From positions 82,338,001 through 82,402,000 of the forward strand of contig NC_045696.1 in assembly GCF_009834535.1 (NCBI RefSeq): a DNA stretch of 64,000 nucleotides, in the 5' to 3' direction. This DNA is from Camelus ferus. Taxonomy: Eukaryota. Shown here piece by piece: positions 13,711 through 63,298 of this stretch. The notes beneath the pieces were generated by a model, which did not search any database, was not told the DNA's origin, and saw nothing but the letters and a program-made list of their open reading frames with translations. The number at the start of each line of letters is the position of its first letter. Position 1 is the first letter of the stretch. A program made the position numbers and the translations under genes.

Positions 13711-14859
13711 CTTGTCGCATTTAGGTGCTCAGAAAGTCCTTGATATCACGATTCTAACATCCAGTTCGCAAACATTTGAAAGTAATGTTAATGTAACTTT
13801 TAACGGAATAAAGAGATTTTTAAAGAAGGGAAAATAACCACATGTCCAATTGAACAGTGCTAACTATTTCAAAAGTTGGAATTTGCGTACACTTTTTCCA
13901 AAGCCCTTCAGGGCACCCATCAGTTGCCCTTCTTTTGAGTTTACTTTCTTCTATGGAAAAGAAGTGTTATATACTAGTTTATTTTCTCCGCATTGCGGGG
14001 CTGAGAGTTCAAGGAGAATTTCCGGGCTTTAGCCGGCTACAAAGGGGCCCGCAGCCCTTGGGTCCCGGAGTCCCGCTCCCGCAGCGGCGCGCAGCCCCAA
14101 ACTCTACAGCTGTTAATTTAGCTAGTGAGAAAGCGACCCTTTCAGCCTCTGGTGGAGCGTAGGGTAGCTTTTCAATTTCCTCCTGTGCTTTTGTACATGC
14201 TTTAGACAGTATTTGTTTAAAAATCTTCTACAAGGTGTGCAAAATTGAGAGGCTAAAAAAAAAAAAAAAAAAGAAAAAAAATCAAACACCGAAACGCACT
14301 TTTTGGCACGCAGTGTGCACACATTTTTCTAACCCTGAACTCCATATGACCTAAGAAATACCATTTTTTTTTTCCTGCAAAGAGGCAGACACGTTCTTAT
14401 GCCTAAAAATCAGAAGTTTTTAGCGAATAAGAATGAGCTTCCATATTACACTGAGGTGGGGGTGGGGGTGGGGTGGATAACCGGATGTAATTGCTAAAAA
14501 AATTTTAAAGTGAGATTCTACCATTTTGGTTTTGAGTACATTTTGCTTACAAACCACGGGAAAGAAACACAACAAAGTATTTGTCCAGTATATATAGAAA
14601 TAATAAAATTATTTAAAACTCATTTGAAATCCTAACACTTTTTTCTTTTTAGAAGTTGACGAGGGTTTCACAAATCCGGATAGTGCCTCGCGTTCTGCAA
14701 CTTTCCCCTGCCATCTCTCCGCCTTCTTCCAGTTTCAAGGGTGCGTTTCAGAGCTTCTCGCAGGCCCCTGGACAGACATTTATTAATCAGAATTTAATGG
14801 CTTTGAGAAATGAAACTTTTTTCCTGATATTCTCGGATTCCAGGAGGTGGGGAGTGGTC

Positions 14860-15350
14860 CAGCCTAGGTGAGACGCAATCGTGGGTGGCACTTTAGAACG
14901 CACGGGCGTCCACAGAGTTTACCGGCCTGGGGCTCTCCTGTTTCCCGGCCCGCACCTGCCGGGCTCAGGCCCCGCGGGGCCGCGTCGTGGCCTCTGTGAC
15001 GCGGCGTTCCAGGCTGCCGGCCCTCGCACTTCACTTTCCACTCTCCCGGCTCAGCTCGCAGCCAGGGCAGCCGGGCGGCAGGAGGCGGAGGCGGCGGCGG
15101 CGGCATGAGCTACTACCAGTTACCGGTGGTGATAGACAACGGCTCAGGAATGATCAAGGCGGGCCTGGCTGGTTCCCGGGAGCCTCTGTTTGTCTACCCA
15201 AACATCACTGGCCGCACCAAAAGCCAGACCAGTGCAGCCGAGCGCGCGCAGGAAGTATTCGTGGGGGACCAAGCGCAGGAGCGGAGGAACTCGCTTTCCA
15301 TCAGGTATCGCCCTCTCCCGGCAGGCAGAAACCGCGTGGAAGGGAAGGAG
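14860..15350 (+). promoter_or_regulatory. ACTRT3 CpG island / 5' region
   Basis: High CpG density, with a GGC-repeat leader immediately before the ATG at 15105. Confidence 0.75.
15105..15304 (+). CDS. ACTRT3: Actin-related protein T3 (ARPM1) exon 1
   Basis: MSYYQLPVVIDNGSGMIKAGLAG (actin phosphate-1 motif DNGSG..KAG). Donor CAG|GTATCG. 200 nt. Confidence 0.93.
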
Positions 15351-15886
15351 GGACAGCCCAGAGAGGGAAGCAAGGGTGAGAGAAAGGGTAAAGAAGCGAG
15401 GATGGGAAGTTTCAGCCAGCCGCCGTTACTGCAAACGCTGGAGCCACAAATCTGAGTGTACCAAAACAAACATCTACAGGGTGAACAGTATTGCTCTCTG
15501 TGTCTATACAAATGTATTCAAATGAATACAGTCATGGTTCGTAAAATACAAGTTCATTTAAGAATATTACTTAATTATGGTACCTTTGTCATTTGGGTTC
15601 TTTTTCCCAATTAACTTATATTAAATTTATATTTATGTGAAGATCCCTCCCCCCTTTTTTTAAGTCAAAAAGGGTAAAGGGGGAGGGAGAACAGAAAGCA
15701 ACCAAAATTGCCGAGGAAGTTAGCTGTGCTAATTTTTGCTGGCAGTTAAACTTTTCTCTGAGAGGTTTTGGCTGTCACTGCCCATAAAGGGTTACTCGTA
15801 ATAAATATGAGGATTAACCCAGGCTAGAAGAGAATAGAAACTGGAAAAATTAAAGGCTGCCATCTATCTTATTGCTCTTGCTACAG

Positions 15887-16805
15887 ATACCCAGTGGAGC
15901 GTGGTCTCATTACTTCCTGGGGGGACATGGAGATCATGTGGAAGCACATCTATGACTATAACCTGAAGCTAAAGCCCAGTGATGGCCCAGTTTTGATTAC
16001 AGAGTCAGCACTGAATCCACTGGCCAACCGGCAACGTGTCACTGAAGTGTTTTTTGAGCATCTGGAGGTTCCAGCCTTCTATATGTCCATCCAGGGGGTG
16101 CTAGCTCTCTTTGCTGCTGGCTTCACTACTGGCTTTGTGCTGAATTCAGGTGCTGGGGTCACCCAGTGCGTGCCCATCTTTGAGGGTTACTGTCTCCCTC
16201 ATGGTGTCCAGCAGCTAGATCTGGCAGGCCTTGACCTCACCAACTACCTCATGATGCTGTTGAAGGACCATGGCATCATGCTGCTTAGTTCTTCTGACAG
16301 GAAGATTGTCGCAGACATTAAGGAAACCTCTTGTTATGTGGCAATAAACTTTGAGGAGGAAAAAGCCAAGAAAGCTGACTGTATAGAGAAGGTTTACCAA
16401 CTACCCGATGGGAAGGTGCTCAGACTCCATGACCAGCTCTTTCATTGTCCAGAGGCTCTCTTCTCTCCAAGTCTCGTGCACCTTGAAACCCCTGGCATTG
16501 ATAAGATGTGCTTCAGCAGCATAATGAAATGTGATACAGATCTGAGGAATTCCTTTTTCTCCAATATTATCCTTGCTGGGGGATCGACCTCTTTCCCTGG
16601 TTTGGATAAGAGGCTGGTTAAGGATATAGCAAAGGTGGTGCCTGCCAACACCCCTGTGCAGGTTATAGCGCCCCCAGAAAGGAAAATATCAGTGTGGATG
16701 GGAGGCTCTATTCTTGCATCCCTGTCTGCCTTCCAGGACATGTGGATCACTGCAGCGGAATTTAAAGAAGTTGGACCCAACATAGTACACCAAAGATGCT
16801 TCTGA
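15887..16805 (+). CDS. ACTRT3: Actin-related protein T3 exon 2
   Basis: Acceptor CTACAG|ATAC. YPVERGLITSWGDME...PPERKISVWMGGSILASL...IVHQRCF*. Joined CDS is 1119 nt = 372 aa. Position between MYNN and TERC matches human synteny. Confidence 0.95.
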
Positions 16806-17049
16806 ATACAGATGACATGGTTAGAAGAAAATGTTTTGAGTATATGTGACAGAAATCTTTGGATATTATATGTTCCTGGGAGAACAGAAAATATTTCAAT
16901 TATTAGAATGTCCAGGTCTCTGTTGTGTTTCTGTAATGGGGGGCGGAAGGAATAATGGTGAAGCAGTCAAATAACACTTATTGAGTAGAGCCAAATTAAA
17001 TGCTAGAGGAGACATTATTCTTGACCCTGGGGATCTTTCATTTCCCTTG

Positions 17050-17810
17050 GAGAGAGAACAATTTGTGGTACAATATGATATGTGCCAAATGAGTGATAAA
17101 GATTTAAGTTTGTTGAAATTTATGGAAAGAAGGTTGCTAAGAGGGAAGATTTCATAGCAGAGGTATGCCATCAGGTGGCATTAGGATGGGTGTGGGGGGT
17201 AAAACAAAAGGCAGATATTCAGAAAAGCATAATGGAAATGAGTAAGAAGCTAGATATGAAGATGCACAAAGCATATTCAAGGCATGTTTAATACATTAGT
17301 TTTGTTAAAATGAAGAGCCCATATGAAGCAGACTAAAAGCAATGACTAGGAAGGTAAATTAAGGCCAGTGACTGAAAGGCTTTGTGTTAAATGTCCTACA
17401 GGCAAAAGGAAAATCATTAAAGGCTTAAAAGCAGGAGACATAGGGAAATTAATGTGAATGTGGTGATAGTTTGGAGGATAAATTGGACTAGGAAGACCCT
17501 GCAGATTCAGTGATCAGTTTAAAAAGTTATTAGTCTAGATATAAAGCAGTCAAGACTTATACTTAAAATTATAAGCAATAGGAATTAAAAATAAGAAATT
17601 AGGAAAAACTGACAAGTCTTGGTGCCTATTAATTATGAAGGGGAAAGAAGGATCTGCAATGACCTGAGTAGCTGAGAGAATGATGGCAGTGTTGATATAA
17701 CTCAAAGTATTTAGTGTCTGCTCTATGCAAAGCACTGTGCTAAGTGCATTGAGTGCTAAATCAGGAGTCAGATTGTGTCCTTGAGCAGCCAGCAGTCTAG
17801 TGTAAGAGGT
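17050..17810 (-). mobile_element. L2 LINE fragments
   Basis: Purine-rich degenerate L2 antisense sequence, including TATTTAGTGTCTGCTCTATGCAAAGCACTGTGCTAAG. Confidence 0.5.
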
Positions 17811-19779
17811 GACATTCATACCTTAATTATAATAATACAGGATAAAAAGTGATTGTGTCCTAAGAGAAGTATAAAGTGGGAAAATATTCATAAGAGGGAA
17901 TATATCTTGAGGGCTCAGGGAAGACTTTCTGATAGATTTGGCTTTGGGGCTGGGCTTGAAGGACAGATGGAATCTAAACCTAAGAGTGTTCTTCCTTCTG
18001 AATTTAGGGGCAGCACATATGGGTTCAGATTCAAGCACTACCACCTACCAGCTGCATGATTGAAACAAATTGTTTAAACATTCTGAAGATCAATTTCTTT
18101 ATCGATAAATGGGGTTGCTAATCCTAATCCCTGTCTGTCTCACGGGGTCATCATGAAATTCAAATGAGACAATGTCTCTCTACAGGCACGTTTACAATGT
18201 TATTTTTTGCTTATAGAATTAGAGAATTTATATGTCCAGCTCATGCTACTTCCTCCGAGGAGTCAGAATCTATCACTTGTGTCCTTCAGCACATTTATAT
18301 TACCTGTATTTCTCTTGACCACTTGATGTAGCCTTATCTTTTGGTTTGCTTGTCTTTTTCCCTTATTAGATATGTTCTTAGAAGACAGGGATTGTGGGCT
18401 TTCTCTTTTCATCTCTAACCCCCTTTCATGATGACTTCTATAGTACAATCTCAGTATGTATGCAGATGTATAGAATTGGACAGAAGCACACTACTGGCAG
18501 AGGCAACACTAGGGCAAGGGCTCTAAGGTATAAAAATGAGCATGTACAAGCAGCTGGAAGTAATTCAGTTTGGCCTGAGTTTGTGAAGAGGTGCATTTCC
18601 TCCCCATTTTAGTGATTGTAAGCAAGACTGGATAAGGTGTAGAAAATGGTTATCTAAGAGAAGTTTAAACAGTTGATGCTGCACTCACTAGATTCACAAG
18701 CACTGTAGAGAGAATGATCCCAACCCTCTCACTTTAGAATGCTTAAATTGCTTTTTTTCCTAAAATGTATGGTCATGGCTAACAATACATTTAATTTAAC
18801 CATATATCTAACTTAAACTTCAACAGCCCAGAGAGATGGGCAAGACAAGTAGTATTCCCATTTTACAAATAAAGAAATTGAGATTTAAAGAGGTTAAGAG
18901 ATTTAAGGTGATCTACAAAGTAGCTTGCTAGATTAGGCGGGCAAAACAATCCTTAACTGTGGTTTCTTAGGGAGTTAACCCAACAACTAGCCTAGAATAT
19001 TCTGTATGGACTCTAGCCTCTTCTTCAGGGTCATAATAGATCCTTTTCACATGGTAATCTAGGGAAAGAAAAAAAAAAAAAGCGAAAATTCCGTTTAGTC
19101 ATATTTTTCCTTATCCTAAGTCGTATCAGACCAACCTTCATGACATTTTACTTTTCTCTCAGGTCGAGGCAACAACAGCAACAAATCCAAGGAAGTCCAC
19201 CCAATTTAACGGGTTCAACTTCTACGATCAGCCGGTTACATGAAAAACAGCATTGTACCGGCCAATATAAAAAAGCTACGATTTATGTGCACTGCTCTTT
19301 TTTTTTTTTTTTTTAAATGTAATCACAATGCTACATTAACGCGTTCAATGATTGAAAAGCCTTTATTTCCTAATAAAAGGGAGATTCAGTCCTCAAGTTA
19401 AAATTAGGAATGAAATAGTTCCTCACGTGTAATAAAAGACATCCTCTGCTCAAGCAGTTGAAGAGAAGGCTTTCTAATGAGAAGCGAGCAGATAAGAAAC
19501 TCGGAGGCAGGCAGCCCAACGAGCTGAGTCAAGATTTTGGTTTAGTTGGTGCTGCTTGGGAATCTATTTTCGTAAATATCTCTAACAAAAATGTTATCAA
19601 AAAAGAATCACTGTTTTGCGTCCCTGGCCCTAAAATTTTTCTACGAGCTCCTTTTTTTTTTTTTTTAAGATAGTTACGTGTATCGCGCCTGCTCTAAACA
19701 GCACTCAGAAGCAATCAGGTTACAAGTCAACACGTCGAAAGAAAATTCAAATCTTCCGCTAACGAACGTGAGGGAGGAG

Positions 19780-19930
19780 CGGCGGCGATTGCCCTCACGC
19801 CCCGAAACAATTTTTGAAAAAAATTTTTTGCGAGGCCCGGCTCTCGCGAGAGCCGCGGCGGGCGGGCCTCAGCCAATCGGCGCAGGCGGCGGCCACTTCC
19901 TTTATAAGGACACGCAGCCGGCTGCGCGGC
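19780..19930 (+). promoter_or_regulatory. TERC Pol II promoter
   Basis: CCAAT at 19873-19877, ETS CACTTCC at 19894-19900, TATAAG at 19903-19908 (~-28), GC boxes, and TCTCGCGAGA at 19842-19851. Confidence 0.9.
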
Positions 19931-20370
19931 GGGTTGCGGAGGGTGGGCCCGGGGGCGGTGGCGGCCATTTTGTACCTAACCCTAACTGAGAAGGGCGTAG
20001 GCGCGGCGCTTTTGCTCCCCGCGCGCTGTTTTTCTCGCTGACTTTCAGCGGGCGGAAAAGCCTCGGCCTACCGCCATCCACGATTCAGTCTGAAGTAAAC
20101 AAAAAATGTCAGCCGCTGGCTCGCTCACTACTCCCGGGAACCTGCGGTGGCTCGCCCGCCCAGCCCCCGCGCCCGCCTAAGGCCGCGGTCTGCCCGGGGC
20201 TTCTCCGGAGGCACCCATTGCCGCCGCGAAGAGTTGGTCTCTGTCAGCCGCGGGTGTCTCGTGGGCCAAGGCGAGGCTCTGACCGCAGGGAAAGGAATGG
20301 AGCGGGTACCCGCGCGCGGTGCGCTTCTCTGAGCTGTGGGACGTGCACTCGGGACTCGGCTCAGACACTT
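19931..20370 (+). ncRNA. TERC: Telomerase RNA component (~440 nt)
   Basis: 5' GGGTTGCGGAGGGTGGG. Template CTAACCCTAAC at 19976-19986. Pseudoknot strands GCTGACTTTCAGC at 20037-20049 and AAAAAATGTCAGC at 20101-20113. CR4/5 P6.1 AGAGTTGGTCTCT at 20230-20242. H box AAAGGA at 20291-20296, CAB box TGAG at 20330-20333, ACA at 20365-20367 plus 3 nt. Confidence 0.98.
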
Positions 20371-21316: not shown

Positions 21317-21431
21317 GTGGGGGTATAGATCGGTGGTAGAGCACATGCTTAGCATGCACAAGGTCTCAGGTTCAATCCCCAGTGCCTCCATTAAAGACAA
21401 AACAAAACGCTTACCCCCTCCCCCCAAAAGA
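21317..21431 (+). mobile_element. Vic-1-like SINE with TSD
   Basis: tRNA-like head and C-rich/A-rich tail. TSD AAGAAATGTGA at 21303-21313 and 21432-21442, at a TT|AAGA L1 endonuclease site. Confidence 0.85.
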
Positions 21432-28259: not shown

Positions 28260-28386
28260 GGGGGAGGATATGGCCCAGTGGTAGACTGCATGCACAGCAT
28301 GCACAAGGTCCTGAGTTCAATCCTCAGTACCTCCATTAAAGATAAAGAAATAAATAAAACTAATTACTCCCCCCACCAATAATAAT
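28260..28386 (+). mobile_element. Vic-1-like SINE
   Basis: GGGGGAGGATATGGCCCAGTGGTAGA...CTGAGTTCAATCCTCAGTACCTCCATTAAA...TAATTACTCCCCCC. Confidence 0.85.
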
Positions 28387-39872: not shown

Positions 39873-40025
39873 GGGGGGAGGGTATAGCTCAGTGGTAGAG
39901 TGCATGCTCAGAATGCATGAGCTCCTGAGTTCAATTACCAGTACTTTCATTTAAAACAAACAAACAAACAAACAGACCAAATTACCTCCCCAACAAAACA
40001 AAGCAAAACAAAACAAAAAAATAAA
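39873..40025 (+). mobile_element. Vic-1-like SINE
   Basis: GGGGGGAGGGTATAGCTCAGTGGTAGAG...(AAAC)n...ATTACCTCCCC followed by an A-rich tail. Confidence 0.85.
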
Positions 40026-50645: not shown

Positions 50646-50681
50646 GGTGGGGGTGGGGGTGGGGGTGGGGGTGGAGGTGGA
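50646..50681. repeat. (GGGGGT)n G-rich repeat
   Basis: GGTGGGGGTGGGGGTGGGGGTGGGGGTGGAGGTGG. Confidence 0.9.
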
Positions 50682-50779
50682 GATGATTCTATAAAGCTGA
50701 AAGAGCAAGGAAATAAATGCCATCTTAAAGTCCTGGCCTTCCAAGATTGGCAAATAAGATCAGAAATACATCTGGGGAA

Positions 50780-50954
50780 CCGCTGCCCCCTCTCTCTCCC
50801 TCTTCAGAGATGGTCCACACTCTGTCTATGGAGTGTGTACCTACTTTTAATCTGAGCACTCAACCCCCACACCTTGTGGCCTTTCTCTTGCCTTTCAATG
50901 TATCTCTCTGAATAAATCTACCTTTACTCAAAAAAAAAAAAAAAAAAAAAAAAA
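50780..50954 (+). mobile_element. Polyadenylated LTR-like retroposed insertion with 18-bp TSD
   Basis: TSD AGAAATACATCTGGGGAA at 50762-50779 and 50955-50972. AATAAA at 50911-50916. A-run at 50930-50955. Confidence 0.85.
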
Positions 50955-52556
50955 AGAAATACATCTGGGGAAGAAGCTTTTCTCAGGTTTAGGAGAAGAA
51001 AAGTAGAATTAATAATAGCCAGAGTGATAATAAGCTACCAAGAAGGGGAAAATAGCCCGAGTTTACCAAAGAAAATTGTGAGCCACTGATGGCACAAGTA
51101 TGAGTGGGGAATGTGAGATTTAAGGAGTCTGAATTTCTTGAAAATGAACTGTGGGTGGTTGGTGACTCAAGTCTTCAGATATTCCAGACTTTACTTTCCT
51201 GATTCAATAGGGTTTAATCCTATTTTCAATCAGTGGCTGAATTTCTAGATAGAGGTCAGTCAACATATGAGTTTTGGTCATATTTCACGTGTGAGGCATT
51301 GGGTTTCCTCTGGATTATTTCTGAGAGCCCTCCTCTGTTAGTGCTTTTGTGAGCCCTGGAGACCCTTCTGCCACCAGTCTCTCCCATTCTCTCATTTGTC
51401 CTCCATACCCCATCATACTGTCCAAAATACTTCTACTTCATACTTAGGCAGATTTTCAAGTATGTAAAAATATAAAGAGAATGTTCCAAAAGACCACCAT
51501 ACCCATTTTGCAGCTTCAACAATTATCAACATTTTGTAAATCTTCCTTTTTACCCCTTATTTCAAAGCAAATCCCAGATATTATATCCTTTTCATTCTTT
51601 AACGTATTTTTTACATTGCTACTTCCATTCAAAAATCATGTTTCCTTGTTTGTTTGAAAAATTTATTGTGAAATGTAGATATAAAAGAGTGTTTTAAATG
51701 CATAGGAATGCTTAAAATAAAACAAACAAAAAATAAAACAAGCATTCATATACTTACCTCCAATCTTAAGAAAAAGAACATTTATCTTTTTTTTTTCAAA
51801 AAAACAAAGATGGAATTTGACTTGTAGATCCTATGACGATAGTAAACTAGCACCTATTCTTGGCTCCCTCCCCTAAAGTCACCTCACATAAACTAGAGAA
51901 GTGAGTACATCATTGCTGCTGCCATCACCCCCAGAAACACTGGACTCTCAGTTCTGCCACATCCACCCTGAATAGTCAGACTGTCCTTGCCTCTGTGCAT
52001 CATCCCCTTGAGGTATAAAAATCCTGGGTTAGAGCATCTGATTGGCCAAGGCTAGATCACATGACTGTGCCCTGCCTGGGAATGGAAATCGGCTTCCTTG
52101 CTGATGACTCTGATGGTAGGAGGGGGCCCTGCCTTCATTCCTTTTATATTTTCCCCCAATGGGAAGGAGATTTAGATACTGAGCACAAAAAGGTAAAAGT
52201 CCATTGTATCAAGTGTAGATCTCTGTCAGGCCAGTCTTCTGAGCTCCAATTGGTACATCCAACATCCAACTTCTCACCACCATTTCGCTGTTCCCCAGGT
52301 GTCTCAGACTCAGCATATTCAACTCTGAGCCTGTCATCTTTCCTCAACTCCTTTTCTTCACCTCCTTTCTTTTACTTGGTGAGTGGCATTGCCACTCCCC
52401 AGTTCCCCAAATCAGAAACCCAGAGGTTATCTGGGAATTCCCTGATATCTTCCATATTTAGTTTTAACATCTTTTGAACGTATCTCCAGCCCACTTCCTT
52501 TGTCTCTATGTTCCCTGCCTGGTTCAGATCCTCAGCATCCTTTACCACAGTGGCTT

Positions 52557-52940: not shown

Positions 52941-55713
52941 TTGTACCCTTCCCACTTACCCAATTATCTATTTTTCAGCCAGAGTGATATTTCTAAAATT
53001 GCAATCTGATCATGGCATGGCTCCATTGAAAATCCTTTTGAGGCTTTTCAAAGCTTTCTGTATAAGATTCAAATAATTTAGCAAAGCATGCAAGCCCTTT
53101 TCTTCATCATTTGTCTCTTACTTACCTCTTCAGTCTGATGTCTTACTACCTCCTCTTCCTATCCTCTCAAGATACTGTTCCATTCTTAATGAACCACTTG
53201 CACTTCGTTAGAATGTGCCACAGTCTTTCACGGTTCTGTACCTCTACAAGTGCTGGCTCCCTCCTTGGAATGCTCTTCCCGGCTCCTCTGCCAGTCTCCT
53301 TCCAGACTATGGAGCAGCTGAGCACGTGGGGCTCTGGGTAGACTACCAGAGTTTTAATCAGAGCAGAGAGAGAGGGGAGCAGAAGTATCCATATACCTAC
53401 ATATATATATGTGTGTTCCTTGTAAGACTTTATCCTGAAAATGTGTCCTGCTGCTAATAAAATAAAAATAGAAATGGAAAATGACTGAATTAGACTATCA
53501 AAACCAGTGCCATCAAATATTTGAATCATACAAATAACTCTCTTAGTTCAAATTCCTCACTGCTCACCAAGCAACCTTCTGGTTATAATATGATTTAAAT
53601 ATTAACTGCCTGCAGGGAAAGTGTGGGCCATACCAAAATGAGCATTCTTTTGTGTGTCGTAGTCATATTTTTTATTTAAATGAATAAAATTGCATTATGA
53701 TTTACATGTCAGTCCCCTGTGTATTTGGTTATCATGAAGTAGTCTCATTGAGCCTGTTAACTCTGGTGCACTGTGGAGATCAAATTTTTGAATCTGTAAA
53801 GCCAAGGACCATACACACCTTTGAGGACTGTGATGTCACCAAGGCAATGCCCACATGTTAGTTAGGTAACAAGCCAGCTGGTTTTCTTATGGCAACACCT
53901 GCTATTATTCTTCTTTTTAGTGTATAATGATTCAGGCCCACCTAATTGTTGTTGATTTATTGATTTACAAGCCATGCTTTAAACATACCACCTTTGGTGT
54001 CCAAAAATGTTGCCAGTAGGTGTCAGAAGGACTTTTTGTGTGTGTGCCTTACTTTTCTGTTAGTGGTTATATGTGGAACTATATATATAAGCCATGAACA
54101 TCTTCTCATTCAATTTTCTCTTTGACCTATGTATTTTTGAGGCTGCTGATTGAATAGGCTGCACTGCTGAAAAGAATTTATCTTGGACAATATGCAAGCT
54201 GGGTGATTCACACAGACTGACTCTGTGGCCTTATCCAACGAGTCAGCCTAGACAAAATGATTGAATCCTAGGTTTAAGAATAAAAGGATTCTATTTTTCC
54301 AAAAAACCTCATGTAGTAGAGAGTGTTGCAGGGGAAGATTAATCTTCTATGATTAAGTAGTTCCATAGGGATGTTAAACTAATAAGTGTCAAAAAATTAG
54401 AAGAATAATTGTTTCAGGTTAGTAATATGTGGTTCTATTCACTCATTTTGTGCAAGCTGAAGAATGTCTAAATAAAATGTCACCCGTCCACACTTTAAGT
54501 AAGTTATATTATTAGCTCTAAATATCTATCCTGAGAAGTTTGTGCTCTTAAACATATTAAATAAGTCCATACTAAACTCAGCTTAGAAGGTAATTCAAGA
54601 AAGATCATCTCTCCTGATTAGATGTGGAACAGAAAACATTTGATTTGCAACAACTAATTTGATGTTCTATATCTTGGTTTACCAAACAAGAACTTGATCC
54701 AGAATTTGATATATGGAGTGTAGCCACCTTTCAGAAGAGATACCCTTGAGCAGATAAAACCCTCCCACTCATGGTCCTCTTTCTCTTTCCTTTTCCTCGG
54801 GCTGGATGCAGATAATGATGCCCTGAAGAATGGCAGAGCCACAGTCTGGAAGAAGCTTGGGTCCCTGAATTACCATGTGGAGGAGACCCAAGGCACTGGC
54901 TTAAATTCCCTACTGGGACTGTTTTAGAAGTAAAAATAAATATTCTATTGTTGGAGCCATTACTTGCTTTTTGTCATGCCAATTAGTCTACCCTAACTGA
55001 TATGTTATGAGAAATAGAATGTGTGAAGTTAATGATATCAGAGGGACATAAGAAGTCACCAGGACTCTGAGATGAAATAAAAAAGCAAGGAGAGGGGAAC
55101 TTCAACATGTTTACAAAAGTGGGAGTTTGACCAAAAAGAATTAAATTTTGGTAAATGCAAACAGTACATGCATCATTCCTGTTTACGCTGGTGCCCATCT
55201 CATATTATAATTTGAGAACAATCACACAAAAATGAAATAAATAGACATTAGAGGTCTAGCGTGCTCTTGTTCTAGCTAGATTTACCTGCAGAAAATGTCT
55301 AGAGTAGGGTGGAGTGGTAGTGGTTGTGCTGAGACAAAAGATGGAGTGAAACAGGAAAGAAGTTGAAGAATGTATAAAAAGGTTAATTTGAGCCTGCATG
55401 TTTGTGATATTGGTAGGAATACTGAGGGTTTGTTTAGCAATAGACTTTGGCCAAAGTCACTGAAGATAATAAGCCACACCATGCCATGTCCCCCTGGTCA
55501 TCATGATGGACTTTGCTGTCAAGGATGGACCTTGGGCTAGAAAATGATGACTCTCCTGGTGATCTATGTAAACTGGCCTGGGATTGTGGCATTTGGGGCA
55601 GCTACTGCTTGGATAGCCATCTGTACTTCCAGGAGGATGGGCCCACTGAGGGGTAGTGGAGTGGCACAAGGAGGCAACAGTATGATACATTTTTAAAAAT
55701 AGCCACTTTCTTA

Positions 55714-57896: not shown

Positions 57897-58005
57897 TTCA
57901 GTGGTAGAGTATGTGCTTAGTGTGCATGAGTCCTGAGTTCAGTCCCTGGTACCCCTATTAAATAAATAAATAAACCTAATTACTCGCACCCCCCCCCAAA
58001 AAAAA
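57897..58005 (+). mobile_element. Vic-1-like SINE, 5' end degenerate or truncated
   Basis: TCAGTGGTAGAGTATGTGCTTAGTGTGCATGAGTCCTGAGTTCAGTCCC...TAAATAAACCTAATTAC...CCCCCAAAAAAAA. Confidence 0.8.
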
Positions 58006-60600: not shown

Positions 60601-63298
60601 GAACTGTGCTGTGTGCCCAACTCAGATTTGTGATCACGGACTTACAGTTAAAACAACCAACATGGTTGGTTACATGTTTTTCCCTAGGAATCTTCTGGAG
60701 GTCTAGTCCAGACATGGAGTAGTTGTAGCAGTGAGTGTACTGGTGTTAGGGGACTTCACCACGTGAACATGATGGGGGTGGGGTGGGGAAGACCAAGTGT
60801 TGGCCCATGATTATAATGATGGACCATGGGAATCTGGATACCAGGACATGGTGATGAATGGTAAAAAAGCAGTTGGATTGACCGAGCAAGTATCTCTATG
60901 AGGGCAAAAACTTATTGTGAAGAGGGTACTTGTGTAAGTAAGTGGGAGTCATCTGGGAAGCTCTTAACACATAGGGTTGTTCATGCCCCACTTCTAAAGT
61001 TTCTCATTTCATTGTTTGTGATTGGAACTTCAGCATGAGTGTTTTAAAAGAGCTTTGTAGGTGATTTAGGTGCAACTCTGATTAAGAACCACCATGTCAC
61101 AGGAAGATGGACCATCAGTTCATGCTTGAGGACTGAGTGGTTAGCAGATAGAGGGGTCCACAGACCTACTGTTGGTTGTGTGTGGCCTGGGAGCGATCTG
61201 GGAATGCACAAGGGTTTCCTCCTCCCCTGATTGGTGTCCAAGAGGGAAAATTTGAATGTAACTACGGTAGATATCAACTGAGATGATAATCCCAGCTGTT
61301 AATGTGAGTACGTTTCCATTGTTGCAAACATGGACCCCGGGGCTCTCTAAGCTTGCAGTGGTGAGACAGCCTGAGAGAGTGAACGACCCTCCTACCAGCG
61401 TGGCCCAGCCCTGTGAGGACCCTCTCAAAGCATCCTAGTCACAGGTGCTCTGAGGTGGTTCATGAGACCTCTCCTCTCTTTCAATGTGGAGGAATAAATA
61501 TCACCCTTGTGTGTGTATGGTCAAAAGTGATAAAAGAAAACAATAGCAAAGCCACCCAAAGTGCAAATTCCCAATCACCCTCTTCTACCCATTTTACAGA
61601 TTAAAAACATGACAAGGTGTCACTTATGGCTTAATAAGATTAAAAGAATTTTTAAAATACTAAACAAAAATATCATGACGGAAGAGTTTCAGAAACAGTC
61701 CTATAAATAGCAAAGTGCTTTTGTGATACACAACCCTGGTTCCTTGTCTTGTTGAACTTTGCACCCAGGAGTTGGCCAGGGTCACCCCAAGAGCCAGCAG
61801 AAGGCTAGCTTCATGTAAGGTCACATATGGATGGGCCCTTCTGCACTGAATCCTTCTAGGTACAGGAACCAGAGAGGTAAGCACCTAGGTTACAGACTCA
61901 GCACTGAGCCTCTTACCTGTGTGGCTGTGAAATAACCAAGTGGCAGAAAACAGATGTGAAATCAAAGAGAACTCAGGAAAGATGCCATGTAGTGTTCAGC
62001 TATGGGTGAGCCTGAAAGTTAGGAGCACCAAGTAAAGTCAAATGTAGCCAAAGAACTCACAGAGCTTTCTTAAGCAGGGCTTTCACTGCTCAGTCCCATA
62101 ACTGTGAAGGCAGTAGGGTGAGCAGCAGCTCGACGGAAAAAAAAGTATAAACATTTTATAAGAAAATAAACTGTGAGGCTTTTAAAATGTTAAAGGATGC
62201 TTTCTGTTGGTTTTAATCTAAAATAGAATTTATCAAAAAGAAATGAAAATGATCAGTCTCCAGAGGGGTAAACTAAAGGGTAAATTTGAATATAACTACA
62301 GTAAATATTCACTGGGATGATAATCCTAACTGTTAACATGACTACATTTCCTTTGTTACAAACATTTGGTTTAACTTAATCCTCAGAATATATTAATGCC
62401 AAAAGGAATCTCATTGACAAGAGCTAATGCATTGGTTACTCTTAAAACTATCCCTTTTTAACTGTTGACTTACTGGTAGTGTTCGTCATGGGAAAGACTA
62501 TTTTTATTGCCATTGTTATCAGTCTCAGTGAAGTTCAGAGATATTTGCTTGTAGTCACTGTAGCTTATTCCTTTGCTGGTTAGAATCCACATGTGTGAAC
62601 AAGAGACGCAGAGGTTCGGGTGATGCTATATTTCTATCTGATGACAGCATGACTGTGATTGGATCCTTTGAAAAATGTTTGGCTGGGCTTCCAATCCAGA
62701 TTCTTTTGACTAAAGCCAACAGGCAAAAAGAAGCAGAAACAAAAGGCACAGTGAACTCATTAAAAATGTTTTTTATATGATAAGCCTTGCAAGGCAGTGT
62801 GAGTGAGGGCGATGTGGTGGGTAGGGGCTCTCCAACACTTCCCTCCAGCTTCTGGGATACTCTCACAACTCAGGTTGGCAAGCATCTCTCAACATCTCAG
62901 AACCATTAAAGAAACAAAGCAGAAAGAATCACAAGGCTCCCTCAAATCTAGCATTTCAATGAAATAATATAACATGGTAGAAAGACCTTTGGGCAAAAAG
63001 AGATTCAGGAAAAGCAGGTTCAGCCAACAAATAGAAAAGTCATCTCGGTTAAGACATTTCCTTTCAGGGCCTTGGTTTTCTAATCTGTAAAAAGAGAGAG
63101 GTCTAGCATATCAAAGGTTTGCAAATAGTGCTTTTCTGGACCCTTCAGGAAAGGAGTAGATGGGGGACCCTACCAAGAATACTGTTTTAGGTATTGGAGT
63201 TTTCTCTACTGAAAGATTTCTACTATCAAAACATTTCACAAACTGCTAGATTAGATGTTTTTTAAGGTCTCTTTGAGAATTAATACTTTGAATTCACA

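Follow-up and report, generated by a model that had tools for sequence, protein, structure and literature searches.

A short polyadenylated insert in a camel genome, probably an L1-mediated retrocopy of RNA from an aged high-copy LTR

Introduction

In the LTRs of endogenous retroviruses (ERVs), U3 contains a TATA-like promoter and R a poly(A) signal (PMC11359688), and ERV integration leaves a target-site duplication (TSD) of 4–6 bp (PMC13756887). The TSDs of L1 insertions peak at 14–16 bp, and RNAs mobilized by L1 in trans likewise have long TSDs (PMC2912911). A small insert in the window analyzed here, a 64-kb stretch of camel DNA to which all positions refer, combines features of both worlds, since its body looks like the end of an LTR while its borders look like the work of L1. 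It therefore raises the question of which RNA was copied, by what route, and whether the copy is an isolated event or one member of a mobile family.

We take the genes of the window to be the MYNN-ACTRT3-TERC cluster. Vertebrate telomerase RNA lies at 19944–20370, and the open reading frames within 3092–20370 include minus-strand BTB/zinc-finger exons, presumably MYNN, and an actin-like gene at 15000–16805, presumably ACTRT3. The insertion is found about 30 kb beyond TERC.

Architecture of the insert

The insert is delimited by an exact 18-nt direct repeat, and the 64-kb window contains no other exact 18-mer direct repeat with a spacing of 50–1000 nt, the rough chance of finding any such repeat in the window being ~0.002. 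Between the two copies lie a 150-nt body that begins with CC, an AATAAA signal 13 nt ahead of the body's end, and an uninterrupted run of 26 A residues (50930–50955). Because the right TSD copy begins with the last A of this run, the junction can be parsed either as A25 with an 18-bp TSD or as A26 with a 17-bp TSD. The features are as follows.

50760–50765, minus strand: L1 endonuclease-type nick site, TTCT/GA (YYYY/RR pattern), from the sequence
50762–50779, plus strand: left 18-bp TSD copy, whose junction with the body is crossed with 0 differences by X14 and X12 contigs
50780–50929, plus strand: 150-bp body of a high-copy LTR-like repeat, most likely the 3′ portion that includes R and runs to the cleavage site; the LTR identity is inferred
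50816–50837, plus strand: small hairpin within the most deeply covered part of the repeat family, from folding and coverage
50911–50916, plus strand: AATAAA polyadenylation signal, 13 nt ahead of the cleavage point between C and A, from the sequence
50930–50954, plus strand: poly(A) tail of 25 nt (26 counting the first base of the right TSD), from the sequence
50955–50972, plus strand: right 18-bp TSD copy, from the sequence

The TSD, the 150-bp body, the spacing of the AATAAA, the A tail and the hairpin all agree with the original prediction, as does its central claim that a polyadenylated RNA was inserted here by L1-type target-primed reverse transcription (TPRT), which is borne out by the combination of TSD, tail, AATAAA and nick motif. 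The insertion is thus an L1-type event. Two details fit this reading less well: the bottom-strand nick site, 5′-TTCT/GA-3′, is two transitions away from TTTT/AA and so is not the best consensus, and the TSD, though within the ~7–20 bp of L1 insertions, is longer than the 5–15 bp quoted for the L1 retrocopies of HERV-W that are discussed below. An integrase-made solo LTR is ruled out by the CC start, the 18-bp TSD and the A tail.

The hairpin has a perfect 7-bp stem, and none of 200 shuffles folds as well as the body as a whole (z = −3.44). The body's two ends are predicted to pair, 50803–50810 with 50904–50911, forming an 8-bp helix that touches the first base of the AATAAA. No tandem array was found within the body. 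An internal duplication appeared plausible from aligning one half against the other, but 415 of 1000 shuffles scored as well, so that the evidence for the tandem units described below comes solely from joints in other members of the family.

Patterns for the A and B boxes are absent from both strands of the body, in line with what had been predicted, and each of two control SINEs gave one box (A in one, B in the other); this rules out a Pol III SINE as defined by SINEBase (PMC3531059). There is no tRNA or Rfam match over the body. The stated dissimilarity to the window's L1 3′ ends also held up, as comparison with both of these ends gave no similarity beyond what 54 of 300 and 190 of 300 shuffles achieved. 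The window has no second copy of the body: the best sensitive score was 44, against 35–42 for 4 shuffled bodies, and this match (~54780) is a pyrimidine-rich patch of a different repeat. A suspected likeness to 61300–61600 scored 27, which is background. The stretch at 54700–55000, which we take to be the end of an old MaLR-type LTR, is unrelated to the body except for the pyrimidine-rich patch.

Other repeats of the window were noted in passing. ARAGORN and Rfam tRNA calls at 6060–6130, 21319–21390, 28263–28335 and 39878–39949 are the heads of SINEs, which together with 57899–58005 make up a single family of short, tRNA-derived elements with A-rich tails. These presumably correspond to the camelid vic-1 SINE. 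A genuine tRNA gene seems to lie at 13638–13710 (minus strand, Val-AAC, 65 bits). Vic-1 is listed as a simple SINE of camels (PMC3531059). An 89-nt stretch occurs twice, at 61243–61331 and 62277–62365, with 83% identity and ~1 kb apart, and a (GGTGGG)5.8 microsatellite with G-quadruplex-like sequence lies at 50646–50680, ~80 bp upstream of the insertion, where the left-flank contigs end.

A parent repeat of very high copy number

Four of 24 public runs were aligned to 50690–51170 at 80% likeness. X14 and X12 are DNA, with organism labels A and B, respectively; X15 consists of RNA contigs, and X24 of raw single-cell RNA reads, of which about 1 in 100 were sampled. X14 had the lowest share among the 14 runs that hold the locus well. 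The A-tail region was excluded from the run alignments and 19 X24 loose-end rows there were dropped, which places the 3′ ends of other copies outside the view.

The body was covered by 2022 contigs in X14, 3104 in X12 and 462 in X15, and by 198 reads in X24, whereas its flanks were covered by single contigs. When contig depths are summed, the maximum over the body is 10,673 times (X14) and 12,779 times (X12) the right-flank depth; these ratios are inflated by overlapping contigs and tandem units and do not represent a copy number. The body thus belongs to a very high-copy repeat, with a family size roughly of the order of 10^3–10^4 copies, that is, thousands, so that its parent sequence is present elsewhere in the genome as a high-copy family.

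These numbers bear directly on the simplest alternative, the tip of an ordinary processed pseudogene made from a single-copy cellular mRNA, which had been named beforehand as the finding that would overturn the ERV reading, or else an assembly artefact. The TSD, tail and AATAAA would look identical for any mRNA retrocopy, but the 2022 and 3104 related contigs exclude a single-copy mRNA as parent, and the junction was confirmed in two DNA runs, which makes this alternative barely credible. A host mRNA whose 3′ end lies within an LTR is a different matter and falls under the L1-retrocopy reading preferred here. The body is therefore neither an L1 tail, nor a Pol III SINE, nor the tip of a single-copy mRNA.

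Pattern scans for family copies returned nothing from the metagenome_contigs (0 and 0) and genome_contigs (0) collections, and 1 and 0 matches from viral_contigs, where the one match (L001) is a 19-mer shared by chance with unrelated AT-rich DNA.

An old family and an insertion filled in both DNA runs

The original prediction had described the LTR as young and the insertion as possibly polymorphic, and neither description found support. Of the 2022 X14 contigs, 205 were 99% or more identical to the body, 538 were 95–99%, 784 were 90–95% and 495 were below 90% identical, such that 1279 fall below 95%; the same bands in X24 held 3, 17, 81 and 97 reads. The body itself carries decayed TG or CA at four CpG-type sites (50805/6, 50811/2, 50816/7 and 50875/6), where both states occur in the family, and it keeps one CpG. 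At 50814 and 50860 it differs from 93–98% of the family depth. The parent family is old, not young, and the pure A tail beside so worn a body points to fairly recent copying of an RNA that came from an old locus.

Regarding the allele state, the left junction is crossed by one X14 contig (50690–50811), with 0.77 of the depth of the right flank, and by one X12 contig (50690–50813), with 0.85; both match the window there without a difference, and neither run showed a joint skipping the body. On the other side, right-flank contigs stop 20 (X14), 15 (X12) and 23 (X15) letters to the left of the TSD, and these extra letters, though hidden themselves, presumably represent the A tail. In both DNA runs, which bear two different organism labels, each allele looks filled, as far as contigs, which can drop variants, reflect this, and X14 or X12 may itself be the source of the assembly. 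The shares of the 14 best-holding runs span only 0.85–0.90, and the lowest of them, X14, is filled, which hints that all 14 are filled, although a list ranked by share would conceal samples with an empty allele. The small word shares of runs X16–X20 were set aside as no evidence.

The perfect TSD is compatible with considerable age. Assuming 1.5–3e-9 substitutions per site per year, an 18-bp TSD would survive 5 My unchanged with a probability of about 0.58–0.76, so that it does not date the insertion closely, and we rejected it as proof of youth.

Two further observations concern the right flank. One base of the window is missing from the right-flank contigs, at 51032 in X14 and X15 and at 51034 in X12, either because the assembly is in error or because the assembled animal carries a private allele. 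In X15, a 325-nt RNA contig with a depth of 5.9 starts at the A tail and spans the right flank (50968–51170), with the left flank empty; it could be DNA carry-over or local transcription.

LTR-like family layout and the probable source RNA

Several traits of the other family members point to an LTR. Within the run contigs, joints either go back 36–90 nt or skip 48–62 nt, which shows tandem-unit variation among family members. Six of the eight longest X14 records listed reach 50790 or further left, one of them being the locus's own junction contig. The five X14 pieces from other copies extend 48–71 letters leftward and then stop at near single-copy depth; the upstream sequence is probably shared repeat, because a unique flank would give kilobase contigs such as the 4.8-kb right flank. 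The upstream loose ends contain an A-rich, TATA-like box in X15 (4 contigs, agreement 0.57), X12 (10 contigs, 0.69) and X14 (25 contigs, 0.46), all being low-agreement summaries among the 24 of 278 loose-end rows listed. A TATA-like box followed ~150 nt later by a poly(A) signal corresponds to the U3-R layout of an LTR. We thus infer that the family is an ERV LTR, presumably of the ERV1 class, whose ends the body appears to us to resemble, and that the body ends at the R/U5 border.

The RNA data add a direction. At 50860, the first mate lies on the minus strand in 133 of 137 X24 reads. The family is transcribed from one strand, and this would be toward the tail if the library is stranded in the usual manner, a direction conditional on the library chemistry. 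Likewise, the 36 first mates that aligned imply poly(A) sites near the body only if the library is of the 3′-tag type.

A parent outside the LTRs was also considered, such as the 3′ end of an uncatalogued, high-copy LINE-like element copied by L1. The view of the family stops short of U5 and the TG...CA ends, which leaves some room for this explanation. Against it stand the lack of similarity to the window's L1 3′ ends, the TATA-like box shortly upstream, the AATAAA 13 nt from the end, the tandem-unit variation and the ERV1-like appearance just mentioned, and we consider it highly improbable.

If the parent is an LTR, its RNA could have been of two kinds. We favor an RNA longer than the copy, 5′-truncated during insertion. 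The best rival would be a full-length copy of an R-only RNA, running from the TATA start of a solo LTR to its own poly(A) signal ~150 nt later, with the L1 mechanism unchanged. Solo LTRs are at least tenfold commoner than proviruses (PMC13756887), and the TATA-like box starts ~22–25 nt upstream of the position matching the body's first base, being placed before 50787 in X15 and before 50865 in X12, in the frame of the second unit, with A-rich sequence at the equivalent place, before 50790, in X14. Transcription is expected to start ~28–33 nt downstream of a TATA box, counted from the beginning of the box, and by this spacing the body starts ~4–8 nt too early. Moreover, X24 reads extend past the body's start, 21 of them by a median of 62 letters left of 50802 and 13 by a median of 80 letters left of 50807, no site was found where many molecules begin, and the agreement of the loose ends is just 0.46–0.69. 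We accordingly regard an R-only source as possible but unlikely.

The remaining alternative concerns not the RNA but the status of the copy: the body may be a member of its own non-LTR retroposon family, akin to SVA or SINE-R, with hundreds to thousands of tailed, LTR-derived L1 insertions. The great abundance of the repeat and its one-strand transcription would suit such a family, and the HERV-W group, where 135 of 213 loci are L1 retrocopies (PMC5016936), illustrates that a large share is possible. However, other copies continue upstream into shared TATA-like sequence rather than ending near 50780, the body has no internal promoter and is spanned by one repeat family rather than being composite, and its difference from 93–98% of the family depth at two positions argues against a single young master for most copies. 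This makes a dedicated family very unlikely, and the body is probably a single accident rather than part of a new mobile-element family.

Discussion

Taken together, we consider it probable that the insert is a one-off, L1-mediated retrocopy of an RNA that was polyadenylated in an aged, high-copy, ERV-type LTR. A Pol II transcript would have been cleaved and polyadenylated 13 nt after the AATAAA, between C and A, in an LTR copy that had already aged. The source RNA was most likely longer than 150 nt, either a proviral transcript or a host transcript ending in the LTR, and the copy would then be 5′-truncated. L1 ORF2p would have nicked the target at TTCT/GA and primed on the poly(A) tail; 150 nt would have been reverse-copied and the ends rejoined, leaving the 18-bp duplication. 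Having no promoter part, the insert is incapable of copying itself again. R-U5 at the 5′ end and internal retroviral sequence are absent from the body, but a length of 150 nt is expected for a 5′-truncated or R-only copy, and so their absence is silent on a proviral source.

The closest precedent is given by the processed pseudogenes of HERV-W, in which the 3′ LTR is cut to U3-R and followed by a poly(A) tail, with a TT/AAAA site and a 5–15 bp TSD, and for which an earlier data set gives 0–0.5 kb as the commonest length class of the retrocopies (PMC5016936). The camel insert shares with them probable LTR sequence ending at a poly(A) site, the tail, a TT/AAAA-type site, a long TSD and mobilization by L1 in trans, and many HERV-W retrocopies are likewise short. 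It differs in its camelid lineage and LTR family, in its mere 150 nt without internal retroviral sequence and in the length of its TSD. HERV-W retrocopies, furthermore, spread at about the same time as the proviruses, whereas the body seems to derive from an already aged LTR, and they make up two-thirds of their family, as compared with the one camelid copy known. By analogy, the insert may be regarded as a very short, minimal HERV-W-like processed pseudogene, and its membership among ERV processed pseudogenes is probable, granted the putative LTR identity and R/U5 border. The L1 route is not automatic for ERVs, since platyrrhine ERV-W made no such retrocopies (PMC6995185). Among human ERV groups, the processed-pseudogene route is treated as peculiar to HERV-W (PMC5537654).

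Other systems resemble the insert in part. The analogy originally drawn with the SINE-R portion of SVA holds in that both have a poly(A)-tailed end, LTR-derived in SVA and probably so in the insert, and are mobilized by L1 (for SVA, PMC2912911 and PMC5753468), but SVA is a composite, multi-copy family with source elements, whereas the body is not composite and one insertion is known. HERV-W processed pseudogenes provide the nearer match. Primate retro-DNAs, in which L1 sporadically re-inserts pieces of old repeats (PMC11195612), likewise consist of an old-repeat piece taken by TPRT from a passing transcript, with a tail, a long TSD, 5′ truncation and no self-sustaining family; their cargo is a promoterless DNA transposon, in contrast to a probable LTR end that brings along a poly(A) signal. 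The sequence itself probably stems from a solo LTR, from which the body differs in lacking a TG start and U5, in its 18-bp rather than 4–6-bp TSD and in its poly(A) tail.

We found no paper on camelid LTR retrocopies in the literature searched, which lies outside most subscription journals and Repbase Reports, and passages from the main texts of two camel repeat surveys mention no such copies (PMC8605555, PMC6675863). Passages of PMC5753468, PMC10194239 and bioRxiv 10.64898/2026.04.29.721355 hold nothing specific to the insert, and searching papers for motifs of the body retrieved only an unrelated shRNA target.

On its own, the single copy matters little, since L1 copies any polyadenylated RNA and ERV retrocopies have already been described; the route of insertion is known, and the camelid copy adds an instance to it. 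Its end does, however, show where an abundant camelid repeat probably has its poly(A) site, and the copy offers a non-primate example of a route that has been reviewed as peculiar to HERV-W among human ERVs (PMC5537654). A more far-reaching idea, which we think quite unlikely, is that L1 has many times copied short polyadenylated RNAs given off by this camelid LTR family, RNAs that may be R-only and start just behind the TATA box of solo LTRs. If true, camelids would harbor a population of SINE-like LTR retrocopies, ~150 nt long and derived from Pol II transcripts, and would be a second mammalian lineage, beside the catarrhines with HERV-W, in which an ERV family spread substantially via L1. 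PMC5537654 and PMC6995185 leave open which properties suit an ERV RNA to being copied by L1, and if many such copies exist, camelids would provide an independent lineage in which to address this question.
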